DNA of 53,927 bases from Atractiella rhizophila (GCA_021432655.1 MU271486.1:1-53927); one strand, 5' to 3'. Shown: positions 1 through 28,681, numbered from the stretch's first letter. The notes: generated by a model not told the origin, from the letters alone. Made by a program: numbers and translations.

Positions 1-623
1 TGCATGCCCACCAGCTGATGGATGACGTCGAATCCACCTATTACATTCTAACGACACATACGTACCCACGTTGGCACCCTAATCGTCGTGCGAAAGCAGA
101 AGAGCTCATCAAATCGTACGATCGCAAGGACGCAGCCGGTATGAAAGAAAAGGAGTTAAAAGGAGACTACGCAGGGTTCGGCGAGGACGAGATTCGAGCC
201 AATATCCATATTCTTGGTCCCATCATTTCCGTCTTTCGCCAATTTCTCGCAGCTCCTTATCACACACAAATGCGGTTTCAGCGAATCCTCGCGACCGATC
301 GCAAGAGTGAAGTAATCCAGCTCTGTTCAACGCTTGAAATCTCACACGACAAACTGGAAGAGTTCCTCCAACCAGGTTTTATTGATGCGCTTGCTTTCGA
401 CACGAATGATAAACAAGAGAAGCTACTGAGATTTCTTATCCAGTTTTTACAAATCGTGATCAAGCAGCACAAGGAACGGTTGGAAGGGCTGACGCACAAC
501 GAACCGAATGTTGTTGATAGTATTTTGGGGAACAATAATAAGAAGAGAAAGGGGGAAGGATTAGAGAGCAGCACATCCAAGAGGCTACAAGTACTTCAAC
601 AGCAAGTCTTTCCGTCTTCGTGA
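1..623 (+). CDS. Last exon (C-lobe and tail) of a FunK1-type fungal protein kinase; the gene begins before the window
   Basis: HQLMDDVES motif, near-identical to 4904-5460, ends with a KKRK basic patch and the TGA shared by the other array copies. Confidence 0.85.
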   Translation, partial: HAHQLMDDVESTYYILTTHTYPRWHPNRRAKAEELIKSYDRKDAAGMKEKELKGDYAGFGEDEIRANIHILGPIISVFRQFLAAPYHTQMRFQRILATDRKSEVIQLCSTLEISHDKLEEFLQPGFIDALAFDTNDKQEKLLRFLIQFLQIVIKQHKERLEGLTHNEPNVVDSILGNNNKKRKGEGLESSTSKRLQVLQQQVFPSS

Positions 624-1571: not shown

Positions 1572-2348
1572 ATGTCCACTCGTACCAGCACGCCAACCAG
1601 CCCCCCGAAACGGCCTCAAACCCAAAGTCGCAATGCGAGCAACCCTTCTCAGAGTACCGAACTTCCCGCTACGGAGAGGCAAAGGATTCGTGAAGAGACA
1701 CAAAATCATTACTACTCTATCAGCATAGACGATTTCCTCAACGAATTCTTCCCTGAGCCTGACCAAGGCAATCAATCTGATGACAGTGAGGAATCTGAGG
1801 CGCAGACGGTCTATTCTGATTCTCAGGGCAATCAACGTGAGGAGAGTGTGGAATCCACGGAGCAGGCGGAGTTGGACTCATGGCAGGAAAAGATGGGAGT
1901 GAAAGGGGCGAAGGAACTCAAAGGGACTGAGGTCTATTCGACTATTGTGAGCTTTGTTTTAGACAAATCGCTGGATCTTTATGGGTATGGGGCACTAGAC
2001 AGGCTTCATGAACTTTCTGTTGCATGATACAGAATTGAAATTCTGTGACGTGCATCTAAATGCCGATCCGAAAATGTATGACGGACGCCCGTCTTGGAAT
2101 AAACCTGATTTCACAGCTGTGAAGAAAGACGAGGTCGAGGGGTGCTGTGGAACCGATGATCACATGTGCTGGCGGCATTGCCAACTGATAGCAGACGCGA
2201 AATTCCAGAACGAGGATCCTTTCCAAGGGTCGATTTGGCGTCAAGAAATTGTTGGCACACTGAAGCAAATTCTCCACTACTTGCTGGACCTAGCATATTT
2301 CCAGCACCGCACGGCATCCTATCTCATCCTCTTCTTCCCTGGCGCAGC
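1572..2348 (+). CDS. Type A REase-like/FunK1 kinase, 5' part, cut by the assembly gap
   Basis: Near-identical to 6517-7293, same first intron (1947-1998), KPDF and ADAK motifs intact. Confidence 0.85.
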
Positions 2349-2373
2349 NNNNNNNNNNNNNNNNNNNNNNNNN
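2349..2373. other. Assembly gap (25 N)
   Basis: Run of N; flanks match positions 7293 and 11521. Confidence 0.99.
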
Positions 2374-2717
2374 GAGAGACCGAAGGGAAGAAGGTAGACT
2401 CAAAGGTAAACCGAAGGTGAGGGATGAACGGAGGTTTTTGAATGTTGTGGGGGAGAGCGAGGTGAGGATTACGAGAGGAAGAAATCTCACGGATGTCGAC
2501 GCTGATGGAAGGATTTGGGGGTCAGAAAGGACTTCAGGTTGAGGAAGAAGTAGAGGAAGCATGGCAGCAAGGGCCAAGCTCGCTCTCCCAGTTACATGCT
2601 GAGGCGCGTTCTTCCTTCCTCTCCGAGGCGGACGCCGAAGAGAAGGAGATTGAGATCAGAATACGGTTGCTGCAAAAGAAACATGAGTTGTTGGGGAGGC
2701 TGAAATCACTGACTTGA
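2374..2717 (+). other. Second copy of the acidic coiled-coil ORF at 11408-11866 (3' part)
   Basis: Near-identical to 11521-11866 with one 1-nt indel near 2485. Confidence 0.5.
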
Positions 2718-3118
2718 GGTGACAGGAGGAGGAGTCTTTATTCTGAGGATGACTGGTCGTTGCATTTCGTGATTCCATTGTGCAATATCTGTATTCATAC
2801 GCCGTTTGTTAATGTGCCTTCCGTCTATGATATATCCTATCTTGGCTTTCTATTACATGATGGCTCCAAGCCAAACCAATGAGCGTGTCCAAGAAATACC
2901 ATCAGCAACTGAGCAAAACCAACGTGTTTGCCAGTGGAACAAGTTTGTGAGGCACCGAAGGCACTGGTACTGGAAGAGAATAGTTGTTGCGATTTCAAGT
3001 CGAGAACTTCCATAGGAAGTTCAACGACGGCAGCAACCATCAACGTTACGTTTATTTCTTTCCCTTGAAACGATCGGAGGACGCGTTGAACAACAACCAC
3101 CAAACAATTTGCTACCCG

Positions 3119-5525
3119 ATGTCCAAGAGTTTAACCAGCAACCATGTTAAGCAGCCGAGCACGCAAAGTTGCATTTGGAGCAACTGTTTCTCACACTTCT
3201 GAGTTTTTGAAGCCTGCTACGGAAAGCTTCATTGAAGAAACTCTAAATCATTACTACTCTGCAAGCATCGTCGCTTTCCTCGAGGAATTCTTTCCTACTC
3301 CAGGAATCAGCAATCGAAGCTCAAAAGAGGAAGAGGAGTGGGAATCCAAGAATGCTAACAAATTGAAATCCTGGCGGAAAGTGATGGGAGTGAAGGACAG
3401 GCAGAAAAGTGAGATGTATCCTGTGATTGTGAGTGAGTATTGTTTCAAACAAGCAACTGGATTTTTATGGCTGTTATTGTTTAGACGAGGTTAATGAACT
3501 TTCTGTGGGGAAGATAAAGAGTTGGAGTTCCGCGATGTGCATGTGCATCCACCAGCCGACGATGAAGAGAACGATGGAGGCAAGTTTGCTCACAAATCAG
3601 GCTTTATGGGCGTGGAGAAAGACGAGTGTTTTGTGGAACCAAGAACCGGATCTGTTGGACTCATTGCCAATTGGTAGCGGACGCGACAACGCAGCAGTAC
3701 GATCCTTTCGACGAGTCAAACTGGAATCAAGATACCGAACAAGTACTCGAACAGGTTCTCTACTCTTTCATGAATCTCACATATTATCAGCATCGAACAG
3801 CATCCTATTACATCCTCTTCTTCTTCCCTGGCGCAGCAAGAATCGTTCGTTGGACTCCGAGGCACATTGTTTACACCGAACTATTCGATTTCACAAGCGA
3901 AGACGAGTTTGACGATTTCTGTCATTTTCGTTCGCTCGTATGGTTCAGCTGGAGCGAATCGCGGCCTCGATTGTCACTTTATCAGAGCCACCGCATTCGT
4001 CGCGGAGGCGGCTCATCAAATCTTTGGAGCGAGGAAAGAGGAGCTCGAGCAGGCTGGATTCAGTGTTCCCAGGGCTCCTGACATTTGGGTGCTAAATCTT
4101 CCAGCATTGTCACCTCCGAACGCTCCGTGTTCGCAGCCGTCGATGCAGTTGATCGTAGGCAGAATCAGTGACTGCTGTCGTCCGTCGCTCTGTGGCAGGA
4201 ATGGAAAGTACTTCATAGGGTACGAAAAGGAGAAGGAGGAATCGATTTATTTTGTGAAAGCCAACTGGACATATATTGGTGAGGGTCGCGCATCGGAATC
4301 GGAAGTGTATGGCAAGCTCAAGAAATCACACTATGTTCAAGAAATGATCTACGGTGGCCACCCCAAAGACGTAGAAGATCATGACTACACGCTCAAAAAT
4401 TCATCACGCATCACGGCATCTGTGCTTGAACTGTTACAGACGGAGGAAGAATCGGTTACGTCGAAGAAGAAGGGAGAACCATCAGATGCAGCTCAGAGGT
4501 TGCACTTCCTTGTCCTCCCGTTTGTTCGCCCATTCTATACGTTTCGGAACGCGTACGAACTCGTAGAAGGAATTCGTGGAGGACTTCAAGGTTCGTTTAT
4601 TTGTCGGACGAAGGACCATCTCCCTGATGTTTGTGTCTAGGCCTTTTGGATCTGTACCGTGCGGGTTACCTTCATCGCGATGTCAGCCACTCCAACATTG
4701 CTCTGGCACGGTCTGGAGATGATGTGAAAGGTGTCCTCCAAGATTTCGATTTTGCTGTCGACTTGGCCGCGACGAGAACAATCAGTCACAGCAAGACGGT
4801 GTGTCCTTCCTCCTTGTCCTCAGTCATCAACATGACTGATAACCTTGACTAGGGAACATACCTTTTTCTGTCTGCTGCCCTCCTTGGCACCGACAGGCAC
4901 GCGCACCAGCTGATAGATGACATCGAATCTTCCTACCACATTCTAACGACACATACGTACCCACATTGGCACCCTAATCGTCGTGCGAAAGCAGAAGAGC
5001 TCATCAAATCGTACAATCGCAAGGACGCAGTCGGTATGAAGAAGGATGAGTTAAAAGGAGACTACGCAGGGTTCGGCGAGGACGAGATTCGAGCCAATAT
5101 CCATATTCTTGGTCCCATCATTTCCCTCTTTCGCCAATTTCTCGCAGCTCCTTATCACACACAAATGCGCTTTCAGCGAACCCTCGCGATCGATCGCAAG
5201 AGTGAAGTAATCCAGCTCTGTTCAACGCTTGAAATCTCACACGACAAACTGGAAGAGTTCCTCCAACCAGGTTTTATTGATGCGCTTGCTTTCGAGACGA
5301 ATGATAAACAAGAGAAGCTGCTGAGATTTCTTATTCAGTTTTTACAAATCGTGATCAAACAGCACAAGGAACAGTTGGAAGGGATGACGCACAACGAACC
5401 GAATGTTGTTGATGCTATTTTGAGGAACAATAATGAGAAGAGAAAGGGGGAAGGATTAGAGCAGCACATCCAAGAGACTTCAATCAATGACTAGCCTTCA
5501 AAAGTAGGTCTTTCCGTCTTCGTGA
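3119..5525 (+). pseudogene. Type B REase-like/FunK1 kinase, frameshifted copy
   Basis: Paralogue of 12270-14670; HRDVSHSNI and QDFDFA are present; frameshifting indels near 3188, 3510, 3628, 3926 and 5460, mostly in homopolymer or dinucleotide runs, so sequencing error is possible. Confidence 0.75.
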
Positions 5526-5685
5526 TTTGTTAATACCAAGTCTTTCTCATGTCAATCCTGTTGGAATGTAAATATTTTGTTTTCTTTTTGGAATGTAAAT
5601 AGTTACTCAAGTTGGTACACTTTGTGACGGCGCGGATTGGGAATGCTTGATTAATATTTCTGAAAATGAATCAGTCAGCTGAGAA

Positions 5686-5820
5686 CTAAACACTCGCACC
5701 GCGATTAAGGCTCATCGTCACCTCTCAGTGGCTGTCCTTCACTCCAGCACCCGAATGTCTAATACCATTCTCCGTGACCAGCCCACGGATCATCGTTTCC
5801 TTCTTCTTTCCCACCCATCA
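5686..5820 (-). pseudogene. Short degenerate remnant of the TAF8-like gene 3' end
   Basis: ctaaacactc...ttctttcccacccatca aligns to 18442-18573. Confidence 0.75.
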
Positions 5821-6202
5821 TTTCCCTGTTTCGCCAATTTCTAGCTCCGCGCTTCTACCCGAAAACTTTCGACGAGAAGCCCTTGCGAGTTGTTCCTAAG
5901 AATCAAGTAATCCAGCTCTGCCCAGAAGTCAGCATTCCACTGGACGAATTGGAAGAGTTCCCGCAACCAGATTTTCTGGATGCGCTTTCTTGCGACATGA
6001 AGGAGAAACAAGAGAAGGTGTTGCAATTTTTGATTCAGTTCTTACAGGTCGTTATCAATCATCACAGAAAACGGTTCGAGGGGATGGTGACCAACGAAAT
6101 AAATATTGTAGACTCGACAATGTTCTGATGGGGACTGTTAAGAAGAGAAAGAGGGATGGATTACTAGTAGACAGCTGCGCCACGGAAGCGATGAAGGTCT
6201 AG
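5821..6202 (+). pseudogene. Diverged FunK1 kinase 3'-end fragment
   Basis: ORF 5883-6128 (QVIQLCPEVSIPLDELEEF...FLIQFLQVVI) is homologous to the kinase last exon; no upstream exons; indels. Confidence 0.8.
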
Positions 6203-6516
6203 CCATAGACGAGGGCTCTTTCCGCCTTTCAATGCCATTCTACTTTTAAACCTGAATCTTTCCTGGTAGGAACGGTGAAGAGCAGCCAAAACAAAGTCAT
6301 TTAATCCATTCTTGTTCTTACGAAGCTTGCCAGTGAATGAAATGAACATTGAGGTTGAGGTTGGTCACGTGTTTCAGGCTTGTTGTTCCTCACCCTTTGT
6401 TCCTCGTCTCTTGTTCTTCGTCCTTTGTTCCTTTTGCCATAAAAACACGACTAATATCAACCACTTTCTCAACATCAGACTGACCACCACGAGCCGTCGC
6501 CATTATTTGTGACACG

Positions 6517-9156
6517 ATGTCCACTCGTACCAGTACGCCAACCAGCCCCCCGAAACGGCTTCAAACCCAAAGTCGCAATGCGAGCAACCCTTCTCAGAGT
6601 ACCGAACTTCCCGCTACGGAGAGGCAAAGGATTCGTGAAGAGACACAAAATCATTACTACTCTATCAGCATAGACGATTTCCTCAACGAATTCTTCCCTG
6701 GGCCTGACCAAGGCAATCAATCTGATGACAGTGAGGAATCTGAGGCGCAGACGGTCTATTCTGATTCTCAGGGCAATCAACGTGAGGAGAGTGTGGAATC
6801 CACGGAGCAGGCGGAGTTGGACTCATGGCAGGAAAAGATGGGAGTGAAAGGGGCGAAGGAACTCAAAGGGACTGAGGTCTATTCGACTATTGTGAGCTTT
6901 GTTTTAGACAAATCGCTGGATCTTTATGGGTATGGGGCTCTAGACAGGCTTCATGAACTTTTTGTTGCATGATACAGAATTGAAATTCTGTGACGTGCAT
7001 CTAAATGCCGACCCGAAAATGTATGACGGACGCCCGTCTTGGAATAAACCTGATTTCACAGCTGTGAAGAAAGACGAGGTCGAGGGGTGCTGTGGAACCG
7101 ATAACCACATGTGCTGGCGGCATTGCCAACTGATAGCAGACGCGAAATTCCAGAACGAGGATCCTTTCCAAGGGTCGATTTGGCGTCAAGAAATTGTTGG
7201 CACACTGAAGCAAATTCTCCACTACTTGCTGGACCTAGCATATTTCCAGCACCGCACGGCATCCTATCTCATCCTCTTCTTCCCTGGCGCAGCAAGAATC
7301 GTTCGTTGGACTCCCAGACAGATCGTTTACACCGAGCGATTCATTTTCACAGTCGACGACCATTTCAACAAATTTCGTCGCTTCGTTCGCTCATACGGTT
7401 CACCAAGAGCGAACCGTGGTCTGGATTGCCACTTTACTAGAGCTGACAAAGCGGTTGCGAAGCAAGCCGTCGCCGTCTTCCTTGCGAACGAAAAGGACAT
7501 CAAGCAGGCTCAATTCAGTGTCCCCCAGGAATCCGATATATGGGAGCTGCACCTTCCAGAGTTGACACGTCCCAACCCTTCTCGTACGCAACCCTCCATA
7601 GAATCAACTGAAGAAGCTTCTGTACAGTCAAAGGAGCCAACCGGAACATCCTCTGCAGCCTCAACGGAACCAACGGTACAACCTTCTGCACCTTCAAGGG
7701 AACCAACAGATCAATCCTCCGCATCCACGGTGGAACCAATTGTTCAACGCTCAATGGAACTAATCATCGGACGAATGGGACGATATCGCCCGTCGCTTTG
7801 TGGAAGGAATGGAAAGTACTTCGTAGGGTACGAAAAGGGGAAACCTGAATCGATTTGGTTCGTAAAAGCCAACTGGGCGTATATTGGTGAAGGTCGCGTA
7901 TCGGAGTCGGAAGTTTACGATAAACTGAAAGGTACACGAAGTGTTCAAGACATGATCTACGGTGGCTACCCTAAAGACATCGAAGATCGTAACTATACCC
8001 TCAAGGACTCAGACTGCGTGAAACCTTCCCCGAAGGAACAGTTACGAAACGATGGAATGGGGACAGGGGGAACGAGCTCAAACGTGGAGACTGAGGGAGA
8101 TCGAAATTATCCTGAACAGCGATTGCACTTCCTTGTCCTCCCCTTTGTTCGCCCTCTTTCCACCTTTCGGAATGGATACGAACTCGTAGAAGGAATTCGT
8201 GGAGGACTTCAAGGTTCGTTTGTTTTGTTGCATGAGGGACCGTCTCCCCTGATCTTTGTGTCTAGGCCTTTTGGATCTGTACCGTGCGGGTTACCTTCAT
8301 CGCGATGTCAGCCACTCTAACATTGCTCTGGTACGGTCTGGAGCTGATGTGAAAGGTGTCCTCCAAGATTTCGATTTTGCTGTCGACTTGGCTGCGACGA
8401 GAACAATCAGTCACAGCAAGACGGTGCGTCCTTCCCTGCTTCTTATCCTCAATAATCAACATGACTGATAACCTTGACAAGGGAACATACCTTTTTCTGT
8501 CTGCTGCCCTCCTTGGCACCGACAGGCACGCGCACCAGCTGATAGATGACATCGAATCTTCCTACCACATTCTAACAACCCATACATACCCGCATTGGTA
8601 CTCTAATTGTCGTGCAGAAGCAGAACACCTCATTAAGTCGTACAATCGCACGGACGCAGCTAGTACGAAGAGAGAGGAGCTAAAGGGAGAGGGCGATTCA
8701 TTCGGTAACGTTGACATTCGAGCGGACATCTATATTCTCGGCCCTCTCATTTCCCTGTTTCGCCAATTTCTCGCAGCTCGTTACTTCAAAGAAGGACGTT
8801 TCCGACAACTCCTCGCAACAGACCGTGAGGAACTAGTGATCGAGCTCTGTTCTGAGATTGGCATTCCATCGGACGGTTTCAGCGAGTTCTTTCAACCAGG
8901 TTTTATTGATGCGCTTGCTTTCGACACGAATGATAAACAAGAGAAGCTGCTGAGATTTCTCATTCAGGTTTTACAAATCGTAATCAAGCAGCACAAGGAA
9001 CGGTTGGAAGGGATGACGCACAACGAACCGAATGTTGTTGATGATATTTTGGGGAACAATAATAAGAAGAGAAAGGGGGAAGGATTAGAGAGCAGCACAT
9101 CCAAGAGACTACAATCAAAGACTAGCCGTCAAAAGAAGGTCTTCCCGCCTTCGTGA
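6517..9156 (+). CDS. Type A PD-(D/E)xK nuclease-like + FunK1 fungal-type protein kinase; introns 6892-6943, 8214-8265, 8424-8481
   Basis: Splicing at GT-AG sites joins the ORFs in frame; kinase motifs GRNG, FVKANW, LHRDVSHSNI, LQDFDFA, KTGT, DDIES; N-terminal KPDF...ADAK...QILHY; C-terminal KKRK. Confidence 0.88.
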
Positions 9157-9321
9157 TTTGTCAATACCAAGTCTTTCTCATGTCAATCCTGTTTGGAATG
9201 TAAGTAGTTTTTTATTTTGGAATGTCAATAGTTACTTAGAGCTGGTACACTTTGTGAAGGGGCAGATTGGGAATGCTTGAATAGTATGTCTGAAAATGAA
9301 TCAGACATCTGCATCCGAGAA

Positions 9322-10671
9322 CTAAATACTTCCACCTCCGATAAGGCTCATGGTCACCTCTCTATGGCCGTCCTTCACTCCAGCATCTGGATGTCCAATA
9401 CCATTTTCCATGACCAGCCCAGGCATCGTCGTCTCCTTCTTCTTTCCCACCCCATCACCCTTACCCTTCTTCAGCCTCGCCCCCCTCCTTCTCCTTCTCC
9501 TTCTCTTTTCCTTTAACCAATGCGGGCACCTCGAGCCTAACCCTCTTCCCCTCCCCCCCCTCTATCCCCCGAACTCCTCCACCTCTCCTCTTCCCATCCA
9601 CTCCCCGGCTCTCTAGGCTGCCAATCGAAGCCCCATCTCAAATACCTACTTCCACCCGGATTCGGGTCCCTCTCAAGCGGCATTCTCGTCACCACCACAT
9701 CCAACGGCGGTTCCTTCTCCGCAACGTCTTTCCCTCCCATTCCTCCCGTTGCTGCTGCGGCAGAGGACGAGGAGGTGGGGATGGGTGGTGGTGGTTCGAG
9801 CGCGTATTCTCTGGAACCACCTCGAGGATCGAGTGCGGCGGGGGGACCGGTGCGGATGGAGACGGGAGATGAAGGATGAGTCGTGCGACCATTCGTTTGG
9901 AGTTTCCATCTTCGCACGGAGGGATGGGAGTGTGAGGGAGGATTTTGTGCGCGATGCCGTGAGCGGGAGCGAGTTGGGGGGTATGGGTATCGAGACTGTT
10001 GCAGGGAGAGCGGTGGAGAAAGGGTGCATGGGTGGGAACGGTTCTGTGTTTGTAAGAGTGGTAGTGACGTATCCAGACGGGATCTGATTCTGAAGATTCC
10101 TTCCCCTCCCAACATCATCTCTCTCTCCCTCTCTTTCTTCTTCCCCTTCTTCTCCCCTGCCCCTTTCTCCTCCGTCCCCTTCTTCACCAACACCTCCTTC
10201 TGCCCACAGGAGGGAAAGGCAGCCAACCGCCGCCTAATCGACCGTGTCGCGGACATAAAGGAGGGATGGAGGTCACGAGCGAGTCTTCTGCGGTGTCAGC
10301 AGCGGAGGTGGCGAAGGCGGTCCATTGTCGTCTCTTGGTGTTATGGCGGGTGTAGGATGGCGGGTGGCGGAGGAGGGAGGAGTCGGCGCTGGAGAGGAAG
10401 GCTGAGGTCTCGGCAAAGTATTTCAAGGATGAGGGTGGAAGAGGACGCCGGCCAGCTTTGGAAGTGGACGGAGATGGAGGTGTGGAGGAATGGAGGGGTG
10501 GAGACGGAGTAGAGGGAGAGAAGAGATGAGATCTTCTTTGTCCGTCGGTTTAACACCTTCTGTGGAAAATAATCAACATCAAACGCGAACTGAGAGTAAA
10601 ACTAACCATTAGCCAAAGGCGTGACCTCCCTAAATATTTGGCATTCCCTCCCTCCCATGCCACTCCTTCAA
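9322..10671 (-). pseudogene. Truncated, frameshifted copy of the TAF8-like gene (last exon, last intron and end of exon 3)
   Basis: Homologous to 18442-19797; 1-nt indels near 9857 and 10203; similarity stops abruptly after cactccttcaa. Confidence 0.85.
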
Positions 10672-11407
10672 AGTACCGTCACCTCTCTCCGCGACAAACT
10701 TCTGCTCTCTCTTCCTCTGACCCCCAAGGAGAGGTCGTTCGACGTTGGAACGAATGCGTACGCGGGATGCACCTGATGCATCCGAAGTTGCAATATTGAA
10801 GGGGGAACGAATGGGACAGAAGATGAGGACAGGAACCCCCACTACGACGCACAAAAGTTTCAAAGAAGACAGCGTAGCAGCAACCATGGGGTATGGGGAT
10901 AAGGATAGGGCTGGAGAGTGATGTAGAGACTTGGTTAGAAGGAACAAGGAGATGGGAAAGTGGTGGATCGCAACTTGAGAAGATTGAGGAGGGCACAGCG
11001 AGGGATAGGAAGGACATGCAACATGATAAGAAAGGGAGAAGGGGAAGAGATGGGAAGAGATGAGCAAAATGGAACGACGAAGGTTACAGCCCCACGATCA
11101 TCGAGGTGAAGGACCTCTACGAAAACGGCATCAGTCCCCAGAAGACGTTCTCCTCTCCTTATTCTGTTCGGAATCCTCAGCCATCACGAGGCGAAACTCC
11201 ACCGTCTCCTCACCTCCCACCTTCCAGCCCTATCTTTCGCGCCTCCTCTCCCACATGCGTTTGTGTAGCCGACCAATGTGGTCATTGCGATCTTGAAGAT
11301 ACACTGAAGAGCAGCTATGTCACGGTGATTGCGCCGTTAGAGGCAGAGAGGTATGGGGTTGTGATTATAACGACGAGGAACACAAGACACCTCGAGCGAA
11401 TCGCACA

Positions 11408-11866
11408 ATGGAGAGCCTTCCGGGAGGACTTTCGCCTCTCGAGGCGGAGCAGGATCTCTCTCTGAAGCCTATCCTGTTGCGATTATCGGTAGAACCTGAA
11501 TCCGACGATGAATGTGCGACGAGAGACCGAAGGGAAGAAGGTAGACTCAAAGGTAAACCGAAGGTGAGGGATGAACGGAGGTTTTTGAATGTTGTGGGGG
11601 AGAGCGAGGTTGAGGATTACGAGAGGAAGAAACTCTCACGGATGTCGACGCTGATGGAAGGATTTGGGGGTCAGAAAGGACTTCAGGTTGAGGAAGAAGT
11701 AGAGGAAGCATGGCAGCAAGGGCCAAGCTCGCTCTCCCAGTTACATGCTGACGCGCGTTCTTCCTTCCTGTCCGAGGCGGACGCCGAAGAGAAGGAGATT
11801 GAGATCAGAATACGGTTGCTGCAAGAGAAACATGAGTTGTTGGGGAGGCTAAAATCACTGACTTGA
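11408..11866 (+). CDS. Hypothetical acidic protein with a C-terminal coiled-coil-like segment (152 aa; may be part of a larger or decayed gene)
   Basis: ATG-initiated ORF, E/R-rich, heptad-like EEKEIEIRIRLLQEKHELLGRLKSL; duplicated at 2374-2717. Confidence 0.4.
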   Translation: MESLPGGLSPLEAEQDLSLKPILLRLSVEPESDDECATRDRREEGRLKGKPKVRDERRFLNVVGESEVEDYERKKLSRMSTLMEGFGGQKGLQVEEEVEEAWQQGPSSLSQLHADARSSFLSEADAEEKEIEIRIRLLQEKHELLGRLKSLT

Positions 11867-12269
11867 GGTGAGAGGAGGAGGAGTCTTTATTCTGAGGATG
11901 ACTGGTCGTTGCATTTCGTGATTCCATTGTGCAATATCTGTAATCATACGCCGTTTGTTAATGTGCCTTCCGTCTATGATATATCCTATCTTGGCTTTCT
12001 ATTACGTGATGGCTCCAAGCCAAACCAAGGAGCGTGTCCAAGAAATACCATCAGCAACTGAGCAAAACCAACGTGTTTGCCAGTGGAACAAGTTTGTGAG
12101 GCACCGAAGGCACTGGTACTGGAAGAGAATAGTTGTTGCGATTTCAAGTCGAGAACTTCCATAGGAAGTTCCAACGACGGCAGCAACCAACAACGTTAGC
12201 GTTTATTTCTTTCCCTTGAAACGATCGGAGGACGCGTTGAACAACAACCACCAAACAATTTGCTACCCG

Positions 12270-14670
12270 ATGTCCAAGAGTTTAACCAGCAACCATGTTA
12301 AGCAGCCGAGCAAGCAAAGTTGCATTTGGAGCAACTGTTCTCACACTCACACTTCTGAGTTTTTGAATCATGCTACGGAAAGCTTCATTGAAGAAACTCT
12401 AAATCATTACTACTCTGCAAGCGTCGTCGCTTTCCTCGAAGAATTCTTTCCTACTCCCAGGAATCAGCAATCGAAGCTCAAGGAGGAAGAGGAATGGGAA
12501 TCCAAGAATGCTAACAAATTGAAATCCTGGCGGAAAGTGATGGGAGTGAAGGACAGGCAGGAGAGTGAGATGTATCCCATGATTGTGAGTATTGTTTCAA
12601 ACAAGCAACTGGATTTTTATGGCTGTTATTGTTTAGACGAGGTTAATGAACTTTCTGTGGGAAGATAAAGAGTTGGAGTTCCGCGATGTGCATGTGCATC
12701 CACCAGCCGACGATGAAGAGTACGATGGAGGCAAGTTTGGCGGCAAATCAGGCTTTATGGGCGTGGAGAAAGACGAGTGTTGTGGAATCAAGAACACGAT
12801 CTGCTGGACTCATTGCCAACTGGTAGCGGACGCGACAATACAGCAGTACGATCCTTTCGACGAGTCAAACTGGAATCAAGATACCGAACAAGTACTCGAA
12901 CAGGTTCTCTACTCTTTCATGAATCTCACATATTATCAGCATCGAACAGCATCCTATTACATCCTATTCTTCCCTGGCGCAGCAAGAATCGTTCGTTGGA
13001 CTCCGAGGCACATTGTTTACACCGAACTATTCGATTTCACAAGCGAAGACGAGTTTGACGATTTCTGTCATTTCGTTCGCTCGTATGGTTCAGCTGGAGC
13101 GAATCGCGGCCTCGATCATCACTTTATCAGAGCCACCACATTCGTCGCGGAGGCGGCTCATCAGGTCTTTGGAGCGAGTAAAGAGCAGCTCAAGCAGGCT
13201 GGATTCAGTGTTCCCAGGGCTGCCGACATTTGGGTGCTAAATCTTCCAGCATTGTCACCTCCGAACGCTCCGTGTTCGCAGCCGTCGATGCAGTTGATCG
13301 TAGGAAGAATCAATGACTGCTGTCGTCCGTCGCTCTGTGGCAGGAATGGAAAGTACTTCATAGGGTACGAAAAGGAGAAGGAGGAATCGATTTATTTTGT
13401 GAAAGCCAACTGGACATATATTGGTGAGGGTCGCGCATCGGAATCGGAAGTGTATGACAAGCTCAAGAAATCACACTATGTTCAAGAAATGATCTACGGT
13501 GGCCACCCCAAAGACGTAGAAGATCATGACTACACGCTCAAAAATTCATCACGCATCACGGCATCTGTGCTTGAACTGTTACAGACGGAGGAAGAACCGG
13601 TTACGTCAAAGAAGAAGGGAGAACCATCTGATCCAGCTCAGAGGTTGCACTTCCTTGTCCTCCCGTTTGTTCGCCCATTCTATACGTTTCGGAACGCGTA
13701 CGAACTCGTAGAAGGAATTCGTGGAGGACTTCAAGGTCCGTTTGTTTGTCGGACGAAGGACTATCTCCCTGATCTTTGTGTCTAGGCCTTCTGGATCTGT
13801 ACCGTGCGGGTTACCTTCATCGCGACGTCAGCCACTCCAACATTGCTCTGGTACGGTCTGGAGCTGATGTGAAAGGTGTCCTCCAAGATTTCGATTTTGC
13901 TGTCGACTTGGCCGCGACAAGAACAATCATTCACAGCAAGACGGTGTGTCCATCTCTGCTTCTTATCCTTAATAATCAACATGACTGATAACCTTGATTA
14001 GGGGACATACCTTTTTCTGTCGGCTGCCCTCCTTGGCGAGGACTGGCATGCGCACGAACTGATGGATGACATCGAATCCACCTACCACATTCTAACAACA
14101 CATACTTACCCGCATTGGCACTCCAGTCGGCGTGCGAAAGCAGAACACCTCATTAAATCGTACGATCGCAAGGACGCAGTCGGTATGAAGAAGGATGAGT
14201 TAAAAGGGACTTACGACCGATTTGGCGACGGCGACATTCGAGCGGACATCGCGATTCTGGGTCATGTCATTTCCCTTTTTCGCCAATTTCTGGCTTCTCG
14301 TTATCACCCACAAAAAGGAATCCTCCAAGAAGTCCTAGCAACAGCTCGTGCGAAGGAAGTAATCCAGCTCTGCTCAAACATTAGGATACCACAAGGAGAA
14401 CTGAAAGAGTTCCTCCAACCAGGTTTTATTGATGCGCTTGCTTTCGACACGAATGATAAACAAGAGAAGTTGCTGCGATTTCTGATTCAGTTCTTACAAA
14501 TCGTGATCAAGCAGCACAAGGAACAGTTGGAAGGGATGACGCACAACGAACCGAATGTTGTTGATACTATTTTGGGGAAAAATAATAAGAAGAGAAAAGG
14601 GGAAGGATTAGAGAGCAGCACGTCCAAGAGGCTACAAGTACTTCAACAGCAAGTCGTTCCTTCTTCGTGA
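12270..14670 (+). CDS. Type B (degenerate nuclease motif) FunK1 fungal-type protein kinase; introns 12585-12636, 13736-13785, 13944-14001
   Basis: Same intron positions as type A and in-frame splicing; HRDVSHSNI, QDFDFA and DDIES intact; KSGF and ADAT replace KPDF and ADAK. Confidence 0.88.
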
Positions 14671-14826
14671 TTTGTCAATACCAAGTCTTTCTCATGTCAA
14701 TCCTGTTTGGAATGTAAATAGTTTTTTTTTTGGAATGTAAATAGTTACTTAGGGCTAGTACACTTCGTGAGGCTGCGGATTGGGAATGCTTGAATAATAT
14801 TCTGAAATGAATCAGACAGCTGAGGG

Positions 14827-15591
14827 CTAAACACTCCCACCCACATTAAGGCTCATGGTCTCTCTTTGGCCGTCCTTCACTCCAGCATCCGGATGTCCAA
14901 TACCATTTTCCATGACCAGCCCAGGCATCGTCGTCTCCTTCTTCTTTCCCACCCCATCACCCTTACCCTTCTTCAACCTCGCCCCTTCCTTCTCCTTCTC
15001 CTTCTCTTTTCCCTTAACCAAAGCAGGCACCTCGAGTCTAACCCTCTTTCCCTCCCCCCCTCTATCCCCTGAACTCCTCCATCTCTCCTCTTCCCATCCA
15101 CTCCCCGGCTCCCTAGGCTGCCAATCGAAGCCCCAACTCAAATACCTACTTCCACCCGGATTCGGGTCCCTCTCAACCGGCATTCTCGTCACCACATCCA
15201 ACGGCGGTTCCTTCTCCACAATGTCTTTCCCTCCCATCCCCCCCGTTGCGGCTGCGGCAGAGGAGGATGAGGAGGTGGGGATGGGCGGTGGTGGTTCGAG
15301 CGCGTATTCTCTGGAACCACCTCGAGGATCGAGTGCGGCGGGCGGACCGGTGCGGAGGAGACGGGAGATGAAGGATGAGTCGTGTGACCATTCGTTTGGA
15401 GTTTCCATCTTCGCACGGAGGGATGGGAGTGTGAGGGAGGATTTTGTGCGCGATGCGGTGAGCGGGAGCGAGTTGGGGGGTATGGGTATCGAGACCGTTG
15501 CAGGGAGGGCGGTGGAGAAAGGATGCATGGGTGGGAACGGTTCTGTGTTTGTAAGAGTGGTAGTGACGTATCCAGACGGGATCTGATTCTG
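14827..15591 (-). pseudogene. 5'-truncated copy of the TAF8-like last exon
   Basis: Near-identical to 18442-19206; switches to kinase sequence after gatctgattctg. Confidence 0.85.
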
Positions 15592-15592
15592 A

Positions 15593-15908
15593 TGAAGTAA
15601 TCCAGCTCTGTTCAACGCTTGAAATCTCACACGACAAACTGGAAGAGTTCCTCCAACCAGGTTTTATTGATGCGCTTGCTTTCGACACGAATGATAAACA
15701 AGAGAAGTTGCTGCGATTTCTGATTCAGTTCTTACAAATAGTGATCAAGCAGCACAAGGAACAGTTGGAAGGGATGACGCACAACGAACCGAATGTTGTT
15801 GATGCTATTTTGAGGAAAAATAATAAGAAAAGAAAGGGGGAAGGATTAGAGAGCAGCACGTCCAAGAGGCTACAAGTACTTCAACAGCAAGTCGTTCCTT
15901 CTTCGTGA
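15593..15908 (+). pseudogene. FunK1 kinase 3'-end fragment (EVIQLCSTLEISHDKLEEF... to stop)
   Basis: Start matches 308-420 and 5204-5320; no upstream kinase exons. Confidence 0.85.
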
Positions 15909-16063
15909 TTTGTCAATACCAAGTCTTTCTCATGTAAATCCTGTTTGGAATGTAAATAGTTTGCGTTTTGGAATGTAAACAGTTCTTTAGGGCTGGTAAC
16001 TTCGTGAGGTGCGGATTGGGAATGCTTGAATAATATTTCTGAAATGAATCAGACAGCTGAGGG

Positions 16064-18019
16064 CTAAACACTCCCACCCACATTAAGGCTCATGGTCTCT
16101 CTGTGGCCGTCCTTCACTCCAGCATCCGGATGTCCAATACCATTTTCCATGACCAGCCCAGGCATCGTCGTCTCATTCTTCTTTCCCACCCCATCACCCT
16201 TACCCTTCTTCAACCTCGCCCCTTCCTTCTCCTTCTCCTTCTCTTTTCCCTTAACCAAAGCAGGCACCTCGAGTCTAACCCTCTTTCCCTCCCCCCCTCT
16301 ATCCCCTGAACTCCTCCACCTCTCCTCTTCCCATCCACTCCCCGGCTCCCTAGGCTGCCAATCGAAGCCCCAGCTCAAATACCTACTTCCACCCGGATTC
16401 GGGTCCCTCTCAACCGGCATCCTCGTCACCACATCCAACGGCGGTTCCTTCTCCGCAACGTCTTTCCCTCCCATTCCTCCCGTTGCTGCTGTGGCAGAGG
16501 ATGAGGAGGAGGTGGGGATGGGCGGTGGTGGTTCGAGCGCATATTCTCTGGAACCACCTCGAGGATCGAGTGCGGCGGGGGGACCGGTGCGGAGGAGACG
16601 GGAGATGAAGGATGAGTCGTGTGACCATTCGTTTGGAGTTTCCATCTTCGCACGGAGGGATGGGAGTGTGAGGGAGGATTTTGTGCGCGATGCGGTGAGC
16701 GGGAGCGAGTTGGGGGGTATGGGTATCGAGACCGTTGCAGGGAGGGCGGTGGAGAAAGGATGCATGGGTGGGAACGGTTCTGTGTTTGTAAGAGTGGTAG
16801 TGACGTATCCAGACGGGATCTGATTCTGCAGATTCCTTCCCCCTCCCATCATCATCTCTCTCTCTCTCTCCTTCTTCTTCCCCTTCTTCTCCCCTTCCCC
16901 TTTCTCCTCCGTCCCCTTCCTCACCAACACCTCTTTCTGTCCCACAGGAGGGAAAGGCAGCCAACCGCCACCTAATCGGCCGTGTCGAGGACGTAAAGGA
17001 GGGATGGAGGTCACGAGCGAGTCTTCTGCGGTGTCAGCGGCGGAGGTGGCGAAGGCGGTCCATTGTCGTCGTTTGGTGTTATGGCGGGTGTAGGATGGCG
17101 GATGGCGGAGGAGGGAGGAGTCGGCGCTGGAGAGGAAGGCTGAGGTCTCGGCAAAGTATTTCAATGATGAGGGCGGAGGAGGACGCTGGCCGGCTTTGGA
17201 AGTGGATGGAGATGGAGGGGTGGAGGAATGGAGGGGTGGAGAGGGAGTAGAGGGGAGAGAAGAGATGAGATCTTCTTTGTCCGTCGGTTTAACACCTTCT
17301 ATGGGAAATAATCAACATCAAATCGTCAAACGCGAACTGAGAGTAAAAACTCACCATTAGCCAAAGGCGTGACCTCCCTAAATATTGGCACTCCCTCCCT
17401 CCCATGCCACTCCTTCAACGTGCTCTCCTCCCACCCGACCTCACTAACATAAGCATCCCACCACTCCGCTTTTCCCGCTCCCTTCTCTTCTTCTTCCTTC
17501 TTCTTAAACCGTACCTCATTCCTAACCTTGCTCAACGGTCCCTCTTCCACACCACCCTCTGCCACTGTACCCCCTTCACCGGATTGAATTCCATCCACAC
17601 CATTGGTCATGTTGTTGGCGTTGGCAGTGGAAAGCAGAAGGGTCTCGTGTCCAGGAAGCGGAGGGAACCAAGCTGGGATGTATTCCGGACGGAGAGAAGG
17701 ATCTTTCCACCCTGGGAAGAGAGGATTCTTCTCTCCCTCTTCTTCATCCTCTGGTACCAACATTTCATCGTCGTCTTGATTCTCGCCCTGGGATGCTGAT
17801 AAGGAGTGACGACGCTTCCGCTTCCCGAGACTGCTGGAGTGTGGAAGGGGAAAGGCGAACGCCTGCTCGACGAGTTTGGAGTGCTCGGATGGAGAGAGCG
17901 AGGAGAACCGGAGACGGGTGCGCTGTCCCTTGGCCGTGTTTTCGCCTTCTTCTCCCTCTCCATCTTCGCTAGAACCGGCGAGCTGGCCGACACTCTTTCC
18001 CAAGCTCTCTACGATGCGA
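16064..18019 (-). pseudogene. 5'-truncated TAF8-like copy (exons 3-4 with open frame, histone-fold exon missing)
   Basis: ORFs 17326-18078 and 16064-17164 match 19729-20409 and 18442-19542; the breakpoint falls in intron 2. Confidence 0.85.
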
Positions 18020-18285
18020 AAGAGTTCCTCCAACCAGGTTTTATTGATGCGCTTGCTTTCGACACGAATGATAAACAAGAGAAGTTGCTGCGATTTCTGA
18101 TTCAGTTCTTACAAATAGTGATCAAGCAGCACAAGGAACAGTTGGAAGGGATGACGCACAACGAACCGAATGTTGTTGATACTATTTTGAGGAAAAATAA
18201 TAAGAAAAGAAAAGGGGAAGGATTAGAGAGCAGCACGTCCAAGAGGCTACAAGTACTTCAACAGCAAGTCGTTCCTTCTTCGTGA
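18020..18285 (+). pseudogene. FunK1 kinase 3'-end fragment (KEFLQPG... to stop)
   Basis: Near-identical to 14405-14670. Confidence 0.85.
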
Positions 18286-18441
18286 TTTGTCAATACCAAG
18301 TCTTTCTCATGTCAATCCTGTTTGGAATGTAAATAGTTTTTTTTTTGGAATGTAAATAGTTACTTAGGGCTAGTACACTTCGTGAGGCTGCGGATTGGGA
18401 ATGCTTGAATAATATTCTGAAATGAATCAGACAGCTGAGGG

Positions 18442-20875
18442 CTAAACACTCCCACCCACATTAAGGCTCATGGTCTCTCTTTGGCCGTCCTTCACTCCAG
18501 CATCCGGATGTCCAATACCATTTTCCATGACCAGCCCAGGCATCGTCGTCTCCTTCTTCTTTCCCACCCCATCACCCTTACCCTTCTTCAACCTCGCCCC
18601 TTCCTTCTCCTTCTCCTTCTCTTTTCCCTTAACCAAAGCAGGCACCTCGAGTCTAACCCTCTTTCCCTCCCCCCCTCTATCCCCTGAACTCCTCCATCTC
18701 TCCTCTTCCCATCCACTCCCCGGCTCCCTAGGCTGCCAATCGAAGCCCCAACTCAAATACCTACTTCCACCCGGATTCGGGTCCCTCTCAACCGGCATTC
18801 TCGTCACCACATCCAACGGCGGTTCCTTCTCCACAATGTCTTTCCCTCCCATCCCCCCCGTTGCGGCTGCGGCAGAGGAGGATGAGGAGGTGGGGATGGG
18901 CGGTGGTGGTTCGAGCGCGTATTCTCTGGAACCACCTCGAGGATCGAGTGCGGCGGGCGGACCGGTGCGGAGGAGACGGGAGATGAAGGATGAGTCGTGT
19001 GACCATTCGTTTGGAGTTTCCATCTTCGCACGGAGGGATGGGAGTGTGAGGGAGGATTTTGTGCGCGATGCGGTGAGCGGGAGCGAGTTGGGGGGTATGG
19101 GTATCGAGACCGTTGCAGGGAGGGCGGTGGAGAAAGGATGCATGGGTGGGAACGGTTCTGTGTTTGTAAGAGTGGTAGTGACGTATCCAGACGGGATCTG
19201 ATTCTGTAGATTCCTTCCCCCTCCCATCATCATCTCTCTCTCCCTCTCTTTCTTCTTCCCCTTCTTCTCCCCTTCCCCTTTCTCCTCCGTCCCCTTCCTC
19301 ACCAACACCTCCTTCTGTCCCACAGGAGGGAAAGGCAGCCAACCGCCGCCTAATCGACCGTGTCGAGGACGTAAAGGAGGGATGGAGGTCACGAGCGAGT
19401 CTTCTGCGGTGTCAGCGGCTGAGGTGGCAAAGGCGGTCCATTGTCGTCTCTTGGTGTTATGGCGGGTGTAGGACGGCGGATGGCGGAGGAGGGATGAGTC
19501 GGCGCTGGAGAGGAAGGCTGAGGTCTCGGCAAAGTATTTCAAGGATGAGGGCGGAGGAGGACGCTGGCCAGCTTTGGAAGTGGATGGAGATGGAGGTGTA
19601 GAGGAATGGAGGGGCGGAGAGGGAGTAGAGGGGAGAGAAGAGATTAGATCTTCTTTGTCCGTCGTTTTAACACCTTCTAGGGAAAATAATCGGCATCAAT
19701 TCGTCAAACGCAAAATGAGAGATAAAAACTAACCATGAGCCAAAGGCATGACTTCCCTGAATACTGGTACTCCTTCCCTCCCATGCCACTCCTTCAACGT
19801 GCTCTCCTCCCACCCCACCTCACTAACATAAGCATCCCACCACTCCGCTTTTCCCGCTCCCTTCTCTTCCTCCTCCTTCTTCTTAAACCGTATCTCATTC
19901 CTAACCTTGCTCAACGGTCCCTCTTCCACACCACCCTCAGCCACTGTACCCCCTTCTCCAGATTGAACTCCATCCACATCATTGGGCATGTTGTTGGTGC
20001 TGGCAGTGGAAAGCAGAAGGGTCTCGTGTCCAGGAAGCGGAGGGAACCAAGCTGGGATGTATTCCGGACGGAGGGAAGGATCTTTCCACGCTGGGAAGAA
20101 CGGATTCTTCTCCCCCTCTCCTTCATCCTCTGGTACCAACATTTCATCGTCGTCTTGAATCTCGCCCTGGGATGCGGATAAGGAGTGACGACGCTTCCGC
20201 TTCCCGAGACTGCTCGAGTGCGGAAGCGGAAAGGCGAACGCCTGCTCGACGAGTTTGGAGTGCTCGGATGGAGAGAGCGAGGAGAACCGGAGACGGGTGC
20301 GCTGTCCCTTGGCCGTGTTTTCGCCTTCTTCTCCCTCTCCATCTTCGCTAGAACCGGCGAGCTGGCCGACACTCTTTCCCAAGCTCTCTACGATGCGATC
20401 CGTTACCAACCGGCTCCAGATTGCACGGAAACAAATGCGAAGAACTTACCAAGAAGAGCGTCAGCCCACTCAGCCCCACGTTCCCTCGCCTCCACCCACC
20501 CTCTCTCCTTCCCTTCACCCCTCCTCTTCCCCGCAAACTCCAACAACTCCTCCGTCTCCCTCGCGCCTCTCATCTCCTCCAACGCCTCCACCACATCCCT
20601 GCCATTGACGAGGGACCGGCCGGAGAGTTCAGCGTTCTCCCTGGAGAGGCTGCCGATGTGGGAGATGTAGGAGGCGAGGAGGTAGGAGAGCACGGTGAGA
20701 GGGACGGTGCGGATGTGGGTGAAGGATTGGGTGGAGGCGGTGGGCGAGGAGGAGGTGAGGAGGTGGAGGATGTTGAGCTGGAGGAGATAGTTGGCGTAGG
20801 CCCCTGCTCCTGCTTGCAACAGTTCACCTGGAGAATGGGCGATAACAAGGACGCGGACGAACCATTTTGCGACAT
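18442..20875 (-). CDS. TAF8: TFIID subunit 8-like protein (Bromo_TP histone fold + TAF8_C-like motif); introns about 20810-20862, 20388-20449, 19677-19733
   Basis: Spliced start MSQNGAGAYANYLLQL...; LSYLLASYISHIGSLSRENAELSGRSLVNGRDVVEALEEM is a Bromo_TP-type helix pattern; RPEYIPAWFPPLPGHET matches the TAF8 proline motif. Confidence 0.75.
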
Positions 20876-26592: not shown

Positions 26593-26884
26593 ACTGTGAG
26601 TCAAGCTTCGGTGAAATGTAAGTGTCAGTGAGACAGTTTCTCACTTCGCTTCACAGACAATTTTGATTCTGACTTATTTATTCAAAGGTCTTGTCTTTTC
26701 CGAGGCCCAAAGAGAATGACGAAAATTAGGCGCAGTCCAGCTCCAGCGGGTTGTAGTCAAGCAAGTTCAGCCGGGTTTGAGACAGCCCCGAACAGAAGGT
26801 CCGGTTGTCTGCGAGTATAAAATCCCAAGCTTTCCTTACTCTCCTCATCCACCTTTCAGCTCACCCACCTGTGGTTAACCAAGG

Positions 26885-28681
26885 ATGCCATCCGCCGCGG
26901 TCGTTCTATCTGTCCTGGGCTTCCCCATCTACCTCTACCTTGTGCGGCAAAGGCTTCTTCGTCCTCTGTTACTGCCTTCAACAGCTCGTCCATCCGTCCT
27001 TCCTTCTCCAGCAGAGCTCGAGAAGCTGTCCGTATACACCCACACAATTTCGAGCATCCTATCTTCATTCCCTGCAGCTTCTTCACCAACTGGGAAGAAC
27101 TATGTGGTGTTGGGTGGTGCAGGATACGTAGGAGGGTGGATCGTGCGCTTTCTGATTGGGAGAGGAGAGAAGAATGTTCGGGTTTTGGACTGGGAGCTTC
27201 CGAAGGGTTTGGACGAGAATGGGATGTTGGATGGAGTGGAATATGTCAAGGTGGACTTGAGGGATCGCAACGGCGTGAAAGAGAAGATGGGGATGGCATG
27301 GAGAAATGGGAGGGGGACGGAGAGGATATTCCATACGATTGCGCTGATGAGGTTTTGGGAGCGAGGGGATCTCACGGTTTGCTCCTTTCTCTCACGTACT
27401 TAGAAAAGTATCAACTTTCTTTTGCGACCAGCTTCCTTATTCATATCGTACAACCGTGGACGGAACACAGAATGTCTTGGACGCCATCAATGCCCTTCCA
27501 ATATCCCCGGAGGCATTGGTGTACACCTCTTCAGCGGGTAAAACCTTTCTCTTGGATTCTTTTGGCCTCACTCAAGAACTCTAAAGGTTGCAGATTAAAA
27601 CCAGCCGAGATTCTGCGCTTGCGAAAACAAAACCCAGTAATCAAGGACGAAGATGAAGAGTTCGAATGCCAGTCCAGTCACTGGAACTATTCGGTACTTC
27701 CCTCGTCCTCTTCCTCTCTCTATCTAACGGAGCAGCTGAAACTATACTTGTGGCAGTATACAAAACAGACGGCAGAGCGACTTGTACTTCGATCAGACGG
27801 CACTAGAGGAATGCGAACGGGCTCTTTACGACCGGGCATGTACGATGCTTCTCTACGAATTATGCTATGTTGACGTTTAACCCATAGGGCGATCGTCGGC
27901 ACAGGGCCGCAAGAGCGTTCGTCTTTCTCACTGCTGCTCAAATTACCCTCTCATCCAGGATCAACTAGAATTCATGTGTCAAGCGTACCGCGACAAGCGC
28001 CTCTATGCTTACTCTGACAACTTTACGCACACCAACATCAACGTGATGGATCTGACAATGGGGCATCTTTTACTCGAAGCAGCACTCACATCTGCTGACG
28101 AAGACAAGCGAAATCAAGTTGGAGGACAAGCCTATCTTATTACTGGCTCTCGAGATATGATCTTTACGGATGGGGACATCAACCAGATTACAAAAGTCAG
28201 TCGACTTCCTTTCATATCTCAATTCTGAGGCAAGAGGTTCATTCTCGACAAAGTTCAATTGTCCCGAGTTGGAGATCGTACAGCTCCCTGTTACCATGCT
28301 CTACGTCTTCTCCCACATCATCGAACTCTTCCTTAATGCTCGACTTCGCTTCCTCAAGCTTTTCACGAGCGCCTTCGAAAACGGAAAGCTCCCCGCGGCT
28401 GCTCCAAAATGGCTAGGACAAGGCCGACTGTTTCAGCCTGCCTTCTTCGAACCTTCCCTTATGGATGTCATAATCGACGACAGTCGTGCAAGGAAGCATT
28501 TAGGGTATGTTTTTCCTTTGATTAGTTGATTGATGTTGACGAATTTGTGAATAGGTATGAGCCGAAGTGGACGACGTTTCAGAGTTGGAAGTGGATGGCG
28601 GATTATGTGAAAGGCGGAGAGGAGAAGTGGCAGAGGGAGATTGGAGGAGGAGACGGGACGTGGAGGGAGAAAATGGATTGA
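26885..28681 (+). CDS. 3-beta-hydroxysteroid dehydrogenase / NAD(P)-dependent epimerase (extended SDR), copy 1, multi-exon
   Basis: N-terminal TM anchor, GGAGYVG Rossmann motif, YTSS, spliced YSYTK (YxxxK), LRPG, ARKHLGYEP; TATAAAA at 26816. Confidence 0.85.

Follow-up and report, generated by a model that had tools for sequence, protein, structure and literature searches.

The 53,927-bp window analysed here is a complete scaffold of the root fungus Atractiella rhizophila (Pucciniomycotina). It carries genes and gene remnants of the FunK1 protein kinase family (two full copies, one partial copy, one pseudogene and five solitary tail fragments) and is probably a recombining, tandemly duplicated FunK1 cluster that evolves by birth and death. 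The four main copies, A1, B1, A2 and B2, all lie on the plus strand and fall into two types. A full gene is predicted to encode a short conserved N-terminal segment, a domain with a restriction endonuclease (REase) fold and a eukaryotic-type kinase with a helical tail bearing the motif KKRK. The motif difference between the A and B paralogues, as first noticed from the sequence, is real. It had led the original prediction to propose alternating nuclease-active and nuclease-dead partners forming a candidate toxin/antidote, meiotic drive or allorecognition locus. According to the reading preferred here, loss of the nuclease signature would be a recurrent event in an expanding family and not a designed pairing. 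A and B would be old paralogues, and a single A-spacer-B unit would later have been duplicated in tandem, with a further occurrence on a second scaffold. The gene models were read from the sequence and spliced at GT..AG introns of 50-58 bases. The main features are the following:

1572-2348, plus strand: A1, A-type gene of which the initial 241 codons are present before the assembly gap (exon 1 1572-1946; exon 2, after an intron, from 1999)
2349-2373, no strand: run of 25 N joining A1 codon 241 to the region upstream of B1
3119-5525, plus strand: B1, B-type pseudogene with several frame-breaking indels relative to B2
6517-9156, plus strand: A2, intact A-type FunK1 gene, 825 amino acids (exons 6517-6891, 6944-8213, 8266-8423, 8482-9156)
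6944-7543, plus strand: N-terminal domain of A2 as folded, 200 amino acids (AlphaFold2 pLDDT 84.8, pTM 0.73)
7628-7723, plus strand: 33-bp (11-amino-acid) tandem repeat, 2.9 copies, in the A2 linker between the REase-like and kinase domains
12270-14670, plus strand: B2, intact B-type FunK1 gene, 746 amino acids (exons 12270-12584, 12637-13735, 13786-13943, 14002-14670)
12637-13236, plus strand: N-terminal domain of B2 as folded, 200 amino acids (AlphaFold2 pLDDT 84.9, pTM 0.74; same fold as A)

FunK1 membership and the N-terminal domain

On the evidence of profile matches, the A and B genes belong to FunK1 (PF17667). Against a gathering cut-off of 24.1 bits, three A. rhizophila paralogues of the window genes, P0001, P0002 and P0003, score 87.7, 84.6 and 95.3, the match covering the kinase part, and P0004, the window's own annotated protein, carries a precomputed PF17667.8 assignment. 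Single exons or open reading frames (ORFs) of A2 and B2 gave no relevant Pfam match because the introns split the domain. All of the closest proteins come from A. rhizophila and have PF17667, and the family profile matches the catalytic regions of solved eukaryotic protein kinases (ePK; E 7.5e-7).

The N-terminal domain is a feature of the family and not a fusion peculiar to this locus, as indicated by three sets of observations. Used alone, the domain has 15 matches at E<=1e-3 among 1.84 billion representatives, and both these and the profile matches include canonical FunK1 proteins of Agaricomycetes. Among the 30 named neighbours of the domain in Atlas, 28 are PF17667 clusters. Finally, in canonical FunK1 proteins the PF17667 profile positions from about 27 onwards already span the QxxxY helix and the next strands.

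This domain is predicted, with moderate confidence, to adopt a restriction-endonuclease-like fold in both A and B. The structural models, built with 25-26 homologues each, show the same order of elements: a short helix, three strands, a long helix and two further strands (H, E, E, E, H, E, E). The best Foldseek match of the A2 domain is 9y1l_B, a putative restriction-endonuclease-domain protein (E 2.9e-3, probability 0.99), and the other leading matches are DrdV, DUF820 proteins and Hjc. VIA-align, which is independent of Foldseek, aligns A with DrdV (Z 8.0, root mean square deviation (rmsd) 4.2, 106 aligned), BpuSI (Z 7.7) and 9y1l (Z 7.5), and B with 9y1l_B (Z 8.3, rmsd 3.7, 122 aligned), BpuSI (Z 8.0), DrdV (Z 7.8) and TT1808 (Z 7.3). 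For A, 14 of the 20 top rows are by title restriction enzymes, REase-fold proteins, NucC, Cas4, HsdR or Hjc. The original prediction of a REase fold thus agrees with AlphaFold2, Foldseek and VIA-align for A2 and with AlphaFold2 and VIA-align for B2. No nuclease family was matched by Pfam at E<=1 for any of 25 aligned sequences, and the search of the profile against sequences of solved structures returned kinases and no nuclease. The fold is called because the structural hits are consistent and because of the placement of the motif residues. In the A model, D37 precedes strand 2 (38-42) and D66-A-K68 ends strand 3 (63-67) of the same hairpin, which is the canonical PD-(D/E)xK arrangement. The B type, with G and D-A-T at these positions, departs from it.

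The signature was verified by direct reading in both A genes (from 1572 and from 6517), which read KPDF...LIADAK...KQILHY as originally described; all three motifs are intact in A1, and in A2 they correspond to D162, D191-A-K193 and Q215xxxY219. In alignment A3, D occupies the PD-Asp site in 18 of the 24 rows that have a residue there, D or E the following acidic site in 23 of 24 and K the Lys site in 20 of 24; of QxxxY, 24 of 26 rows retain the Q and 21 of 26 the Y. By this alignment, D...(D/E)xK...QxxxY is the family consensus, of which A keeps every residue and B lacks the PD-Asp, the Lys and the Tyr. The B copies read G, D, T, Q and S at the motif positions, B2 having G for D, D-A-T for D-A-K and QxxYS for QxxxY. 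Hence the loss of Asp and Lys announced for B stands for the PD-Asp and the Lys, with two corrections: the Tyr of QxxxY is lost as well (Y to S), and the first Asp of D-A-T is retained.

Both types keep the kinase motifs. A2 has FVKANW, HRDVSHSN and DFD, with KKRK close to the C-terminus, and the kinase motifs of B2 are unchanged, FVKANW included. HRDVSHSNI and DFD are present in A2, B2 and B1, in agreement with the first observation. A2 may therefore be pictured as a protein whose own kinase is coupled to a metal-dependent nuclease or a nucleic-acid-binding module. B2, with three signature residues lost but its fold and kinase motifs kept, its frame open and its transcripts spliced, would be a nuclease-dead, kinase-competent FunK1 protein.

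Two local features distinguish some of these proteins. The A2 linker repeat is absent from B, the A2-B2 alignment showing a gap of 53 residues in the linker, and the linker of P0001 is 12 residues longer than that of A2 at this repeat. A Cys/His-rich insert, CC-x6-C-W-x-H-C, occupies the loop that joins strands 2 and 3 in the REase-like domain (7088-7126 in A2, with a match in B2). A, B and the Atractiella clade (P0003, P0005-P0011) share this insert, canonical FunK1 proteins lack it, and it may form a metal-binding knuckle.

Duplication, decay and transcription of the A-B units

Comparison of the window with itself shows that the order A-B-A-B is the product of a single tandem duplication of an A-spacer-B unit at 91-93% DNA identity: 2-2348 matches 4897-7293 (90.9%) and 2374-5820 matches 11521-14959 (92.7%). 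The alternation of A and B genes reported originally is therefore correct as an order, but the four genes are not separate instances of it, since one unit was duplicated. Between the two units, the region upstream of B is 98.8% identical, compared with about 90% in the other intergenic DNA.

A1 is an incomplete gene, because its 241 codons are followed by the 25 N and then by sequence from upstream of B; the assembly contains no kinase part of A1. In the second unit the counterpart of the N run is 7294-11520 (about 4.2 kb), and the run is bridged by none of the public-run contigs aligned to the window. Over the 241 codons, A1 and A2 share 99% amino-acid identity, with 0.005 nonsynonymous (dN) and 0.027 synonymous (dS) substitutions per site. 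A misassembled second copy of A2 was considered as the source of A1 and ruled out, since the two copies differ by 9.7% in the intergenic DNA upstream and by 6% in the tail before it, against 1% in the coding sequence. The stretch 1603-2136 of A1 has zero cover in every run, which is uninformative on A1 given its 99% likeness to A2 and the existence of contigs that fit two places.

The public model P0004 (BT69DRAFT_537635, 652 amino acids, window 1572-8400) is chimeric. Beginning at the A1 start, it reads as far as ...LILFFP at the N run and continues with IADAKF of A2, treating the gap, B1 and the 5' end of A2 as an intron, and its tail is mis-spliced.

B1 differs from B2 by a 5-bp deletion near 3189, insertions of 1 bp at 3507, 2 bp at 3629-3630 and 1 bp at 3925, and a 2-bp deletion near 5457. 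Because of these indels, KSGF and LVADAT fall in different frames in a three-frame reading, and the projection of B1 contains one in-frame stop plus gapped codons. The original statement that both B genes read KSGF...LVADAT accordingly holds for B2 (from 12270), where the reading is open, but not for B1 (3119), where the motifs are split between frames. Contigs of the DNA-like runs X1 and X3 yielded no indel entries within B1 relative to the window, though cover at each frameshift site is uncertain. B1 and the scattered tail fragments would represent the death side of birth-and-death evolution.

A2 and B2 are both transcribed and spliced. Contigs of the public run X2, taken to be an RNA library because of its spliced joints, splice five of the six introns predicted in the two genes, all of them GT..AG. 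The joints are 6891>6944 and 8422>8481 in A2 and, for all three introns of B2, 12584>12637, 13733>13784 (cut +2) and 13942>14001 (cut +1). Intron 2 of A2 is placed by its GT..AG ends and by agreement with the annotated paralogue P0001.

X2 contigs also contain skips with CT..AC ends at 5556-5722 and 10559-10607. These are minus-strand introns and therefore point to a spliced antisense or separate transcript between the FunK1 genes.

Paralogues, sequence exchange and the remaining scaffold

At least nine further A. rhizophila paralogues are found on seven other scaffolds. A 31,155-bp scaffold carries the A-like P0001 and the B-like P0002 under consecutive accessions, so that A-B adjacency is found three times (A1-B1, A2-B2 and P0001-P0002). 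By sequence comparison, these three adjacencies are one ancestral arrangement that was copied and count as one event. Other neighbours are of the same type: P0003 and P0027 have consecutive accessions and both lack the PD-Asp, while P0005 and P0006 lie on one scaffold and both have intact motifs. The signature is eroded in several ways. The PD-Asp is replaced by A or S in P0003, P0027 and P0007 and by G in P0020; P0008 reads H-A-R, with Q changed to R, and P0024 has N at the Lys. The N-domain tree leaves the A, B and P0003-type clades in an unresolved trichotomy, and the eroded state needs at least two changes on it. Judged from these sequences, the loss of the nuclease signature is recurrent among the paralogues while the kinase is kept. 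The P0002 model skips the strand-3 region (17 alignment columns) at the place where B1 has its 2-bp insertion, which hints that the P0002 copy is damaged too.

A2 and B2 share 65% amino-acid identity, with a dN/dS ratio of 0.38 overall. Identity between A and B is lowest in the N-terminal parts (40% and 58%). In the REase-like domain dN/dS is 0.33 and dS 0.89, and in the kinase and tail dS is 0.42-0.53. These ratios suggest purifying selection on both proteins, including their REase-like domain.

Divergence is unevenly distributed along the genes. The nucleotide identity of A2 and B2 starts at 62-72% at the 5' end, becomes patchy (63-94%) and reaches 93-96% in the 3' flank. Between B1 and B2, dS rises from 0.04-0.10 over the first three quarters to 0.39 in the last exon, with a dN/dS of 0.36. 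B2 and P0002 are 94-98% identical up to the DFD motif and 72-73% beyond it, while the tails of A2 and P0002 are 87% identical. The B copies form a clade in the trees of the N-domain and of the kinase N-lobe (support 100/99-100/100), and in the last-exon tree A2 groups with P0002 (85/94). The trees and the identity gradient together indicate that the 3' parts were exchanged within the cluster by gene conversion or unequal crossing-over.

Two other explanations of the B type bear on the same data. The B type might be heading for loss, the nuclease site having decayed first and B2 being the last open copy, without a specific function. The minimum of five frame-breaking indels in B1, the strand-3 stretch missing from annotated P0002 where B1 has its 2-bp insertion, and the joint disappearance of three signature residues all fit such a course. 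It is nevertheless doubtful, as B2 is open over 746 codons and correctly spliced at all three introns, keeps intact kinase motifs and has a dN/dS of 0.33-0.38 against A2 and 0.36 against B1. Alternatively, B could be a catalytically dead structural or regulatory subunit whose REase-like domain joins A or other FunK1 proteins in heteromers and which adjusts the nuclease or kinase of A, in a non-selfish role. Many REase-fold enzymes work as dimers. Moreover, B keeps its fold at the same model confidence as A, is highly similar between loci, is transcribed from a gene adjoining A and shows the low dN/dS of 0.33 in the domain concerned. However, pairing is not general in the family, and B1 and the P0002 model suggest that the B N-domain can be lost; a subunit of this kind is unlikely.

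The birth-and-death cluster thus remains the preferred reading. Several points weigh against it or against its structural basis. A-B adjacency is preserved in all three unit copies, and the N-terminal half of B is 94-98% identical between loci while that of A is 70-79% identical, as would fit a maintained partner function. Z scores of at most 8.3 are middling on VIA-align's own calibration, and Foldseek gives weak E values (2.9e-3 at best). That D37, D66 and K68 cluster is deduced from topology, and the motif statistics rest on only 25-26 sequences. Finally, we know of no FunK1 protein with biochemical data. As an example of tandem birth and death the locus itself would be ordinary; its analysis corrects the chimeric public gene model P0004.

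The remaining features of the window that touch the cluster are the following:

3-620, plus strand: FunK1 last exon (C-terminal end) of a copy that begins before scaffold base 1 (tblastn with A2 residues 617-825, 72% identity)
943-1221: solitary FunK1 tail fragment (tblastn with A2)
5814-6161, plus strand: solitary degenerate FunK1 C-terminal tail fragment (tblastn with A2 residues 689-804, 47% identity)
11408-11866, plus strand: small charged ORF of 152 amino acids upstream of B2; its 3' part recurs at 2374-2717, upstream of B1
15597-15905, plus strand: solitary FunK1 tail fragment within a tandem repeat of about 2.4 kb (tblastn 77%)
18022-18282, plus strand: second solitary FunK1 tail fragment, in the next repeat copy (tblastn 83%)

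The 152-amino-acid ORF has no Pfam match and no usable Atlas match. An X2 RNA contig covers 11041-11953 with 25 differences and may stem from another copy. Between 10879 and 11872, contigs of X1, X2 and X3 share at least 20 positions differing from the window as well as several small indels, reflecting either a collapsed paralogue or assembly errors.

Downstream of B2, 14356-20398 contains three tandem copies (96-99.7% identical) of a GC-rich, low-complexity unit of 1.2-2.4 kb, each with a FunK1 tail fragment. Around the fragment at 15597-15905, 14356-15591 and 15594-16828 are 96% identical, as are 15643-18019 and 18020-20398, and a DNA contig joint (16000>14774) backs the tandem structure. 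Long ORFs occur on either strand of these repeats, such as 16064-17311 (minus strand, 415 amino acids), without a Pfam match. The rest of the scaffold carries ordinary gene pieces with Ish1 repeats, 3Beta_HSD and two oppositely oriented Pkinase (PF00069) pieces (25301-25846, minus; 29512-30159, plus; 32188-32898, minus; 36883-37965, plus). A direct duplication of 1.8 kb links 26882-28722 and 29551-31396 (80% identity).

Comparison with Spok, Crinkler and other FunK1 proteins

The published systems are described here from excerpts of the papers cited. In SPOK proteins, a PD-(D/E)xK domain with QxxxY is needed for killing and the kinase for resistance (PMC6660238). The Lys of PD-(D/E)xK is required for killing and the kinase Asp for resistance, a Lys mutant conferring resistance only (PMC6660238), which matches the account of Spok killers given with the original prediction. 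SPOK1 acts via DNA damage (PMC9972908). The FuSpoks behave as toxin/antidote proteins in yeast, and the nuclease-kinase architecture is called widespread with reference to Zhang et al. 2016 (PMC12693581). The A genes resemble the Spok proteins (Podospora Spok1-4, Fusarium FuSpoks) in that a single polypeptide carries a PD-(D/E)xK-type domain with QxxxY followed by a kinase. In addition, HsdR of Vibrio vulnificus (3h1t), the best HHpred match of SPOK3 (PMC6660238), is among the VIA-align matches (Z 4.9 for A, 5.9 for B). They differ in their FunK1/ePK-like kinase, in their basidiomycete host and in the three introns of each A or B gene. A relaxed pattern search did not find the Spok cluster C-x3-C-x13-C-x5-H-x7-H in A2, B2 or P0001. 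Atlas placed a SPOK2_N cluster at rank 30 (score 0.77), which is only a lead by the standard of the tool. Pfam matched no SPOK2_N at E<=1, the presence of that model in the scanned library being uncertain, and no family besides FunK1 and Pkinase.

These comparisons allow the pair proposed at the outset to be weighed. A would be a nuclease killer protected by its own kinase and B a resistance-only paralogue amplified with it, with drive or allorecognition as possible outcomes. The architecture does parallel that of SPOK proteins (PMC6660238, PMC9972908), and the residues lost in B, with HRD and DFD intact, recall the SPOK Lys mutant. A and B adjoin each other in three copies, the genes of both types are transcribed, and the KKRK motifs suggest nuclear proteins. 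However, no sequence link to Spok emerges beyond the Atlas lead, Pfam reporting FunK1 and Pkinase alone, and the Spok cysteine cluster is absent. The three adjacencies, being copies of one unit, amount to one event, and the other paralogue pairs (P0003/P0027 and P0005/P0006) are same-type. Two of the three B copies are damaged (B1) or modelled without the strand-3 region (P0002). A has its own intact kinase, so that by Spok logic it would need no separate antidote, and A and B have only 40-58% identity in their N-terminal parts. Such a pair is very unlikely, and no observation made here positively favours toxin/antidote action, meiotic drive or allorecognition. The broader proposal, that FunK1 as a whole consists of Spok-like REase-kinase conflict proteins and that A2 is a killer beside its resistance-only derivative B2, is highly improbable. 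If true, this would be the first system of the kind from a basidiomycete and would give FunK1 its first function.

Crinkler proteins (e.g. CRN8 of Phytophthora infestans) offer a second parallel, since they also place a REase-superfamily domain before a protein kinase. About one sixth of Crinkler C-termini are of the REase-kinase kind, in accordance with the architecture given for these effectors in the original prediction, and in CRN8 cell death requires the REase part but no kinase activity (PMC5289972). The Crinkler headers LxLFLAK and HVLVxxP were not found in A2 or B2. The first 30 residues are hydrophilic (mean hydropathy -1.57 in A2 and -1.01 in B2), with no hydrophobic N-terminus. Nothing found therefore points to secretion or host translocation. 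By the features compared, A and B appear to be members of neither the Spok nor the Crinkler group.

The closest relationship is with FunK1 itself (Pkinase_fungal), first described from Coprinopsis cinerea and expanded in Paracoccidioides and Coccidioides. According to an excerpt of PMC3203195, FunK1 genes show lineage-specific expansions in non-syntenic regions and their function is unknown. A literature search for FunK1 together with REase gave no match, with nuclease none relevant by title, and with Crinkler, CRN8 or Spok none among the papers listed; Zhang et al. 2016 lay outside this search. The A and B proteins share with FunK1 the HRDxSxxN and DFD-type motifs, the conserved QxxxY-QHR-RW region ahead of the kinase and, as in the excerpt of PMC3203195, lineage-specific tandem expansion on small scaffolds. 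They are distinguished by the divergent N-domain of the Atractiella clade, with PF17667 aligning only from profile position about 142, by the Cys/His-rich insert in the hairpin of strands 2 and 3, and by the members that lack nuclease-type residues. FunK1 is a large, fungus-specific kinase family without a known function, and its conserved N-terminal region is predicted here to have a REase fold with D...(D/E)xK...QxxxY. Coupling of a nuclease to a kinase, as in Spok and CRN8, would thus be a concrete, testable hypothesis for the whole FunK1 family.

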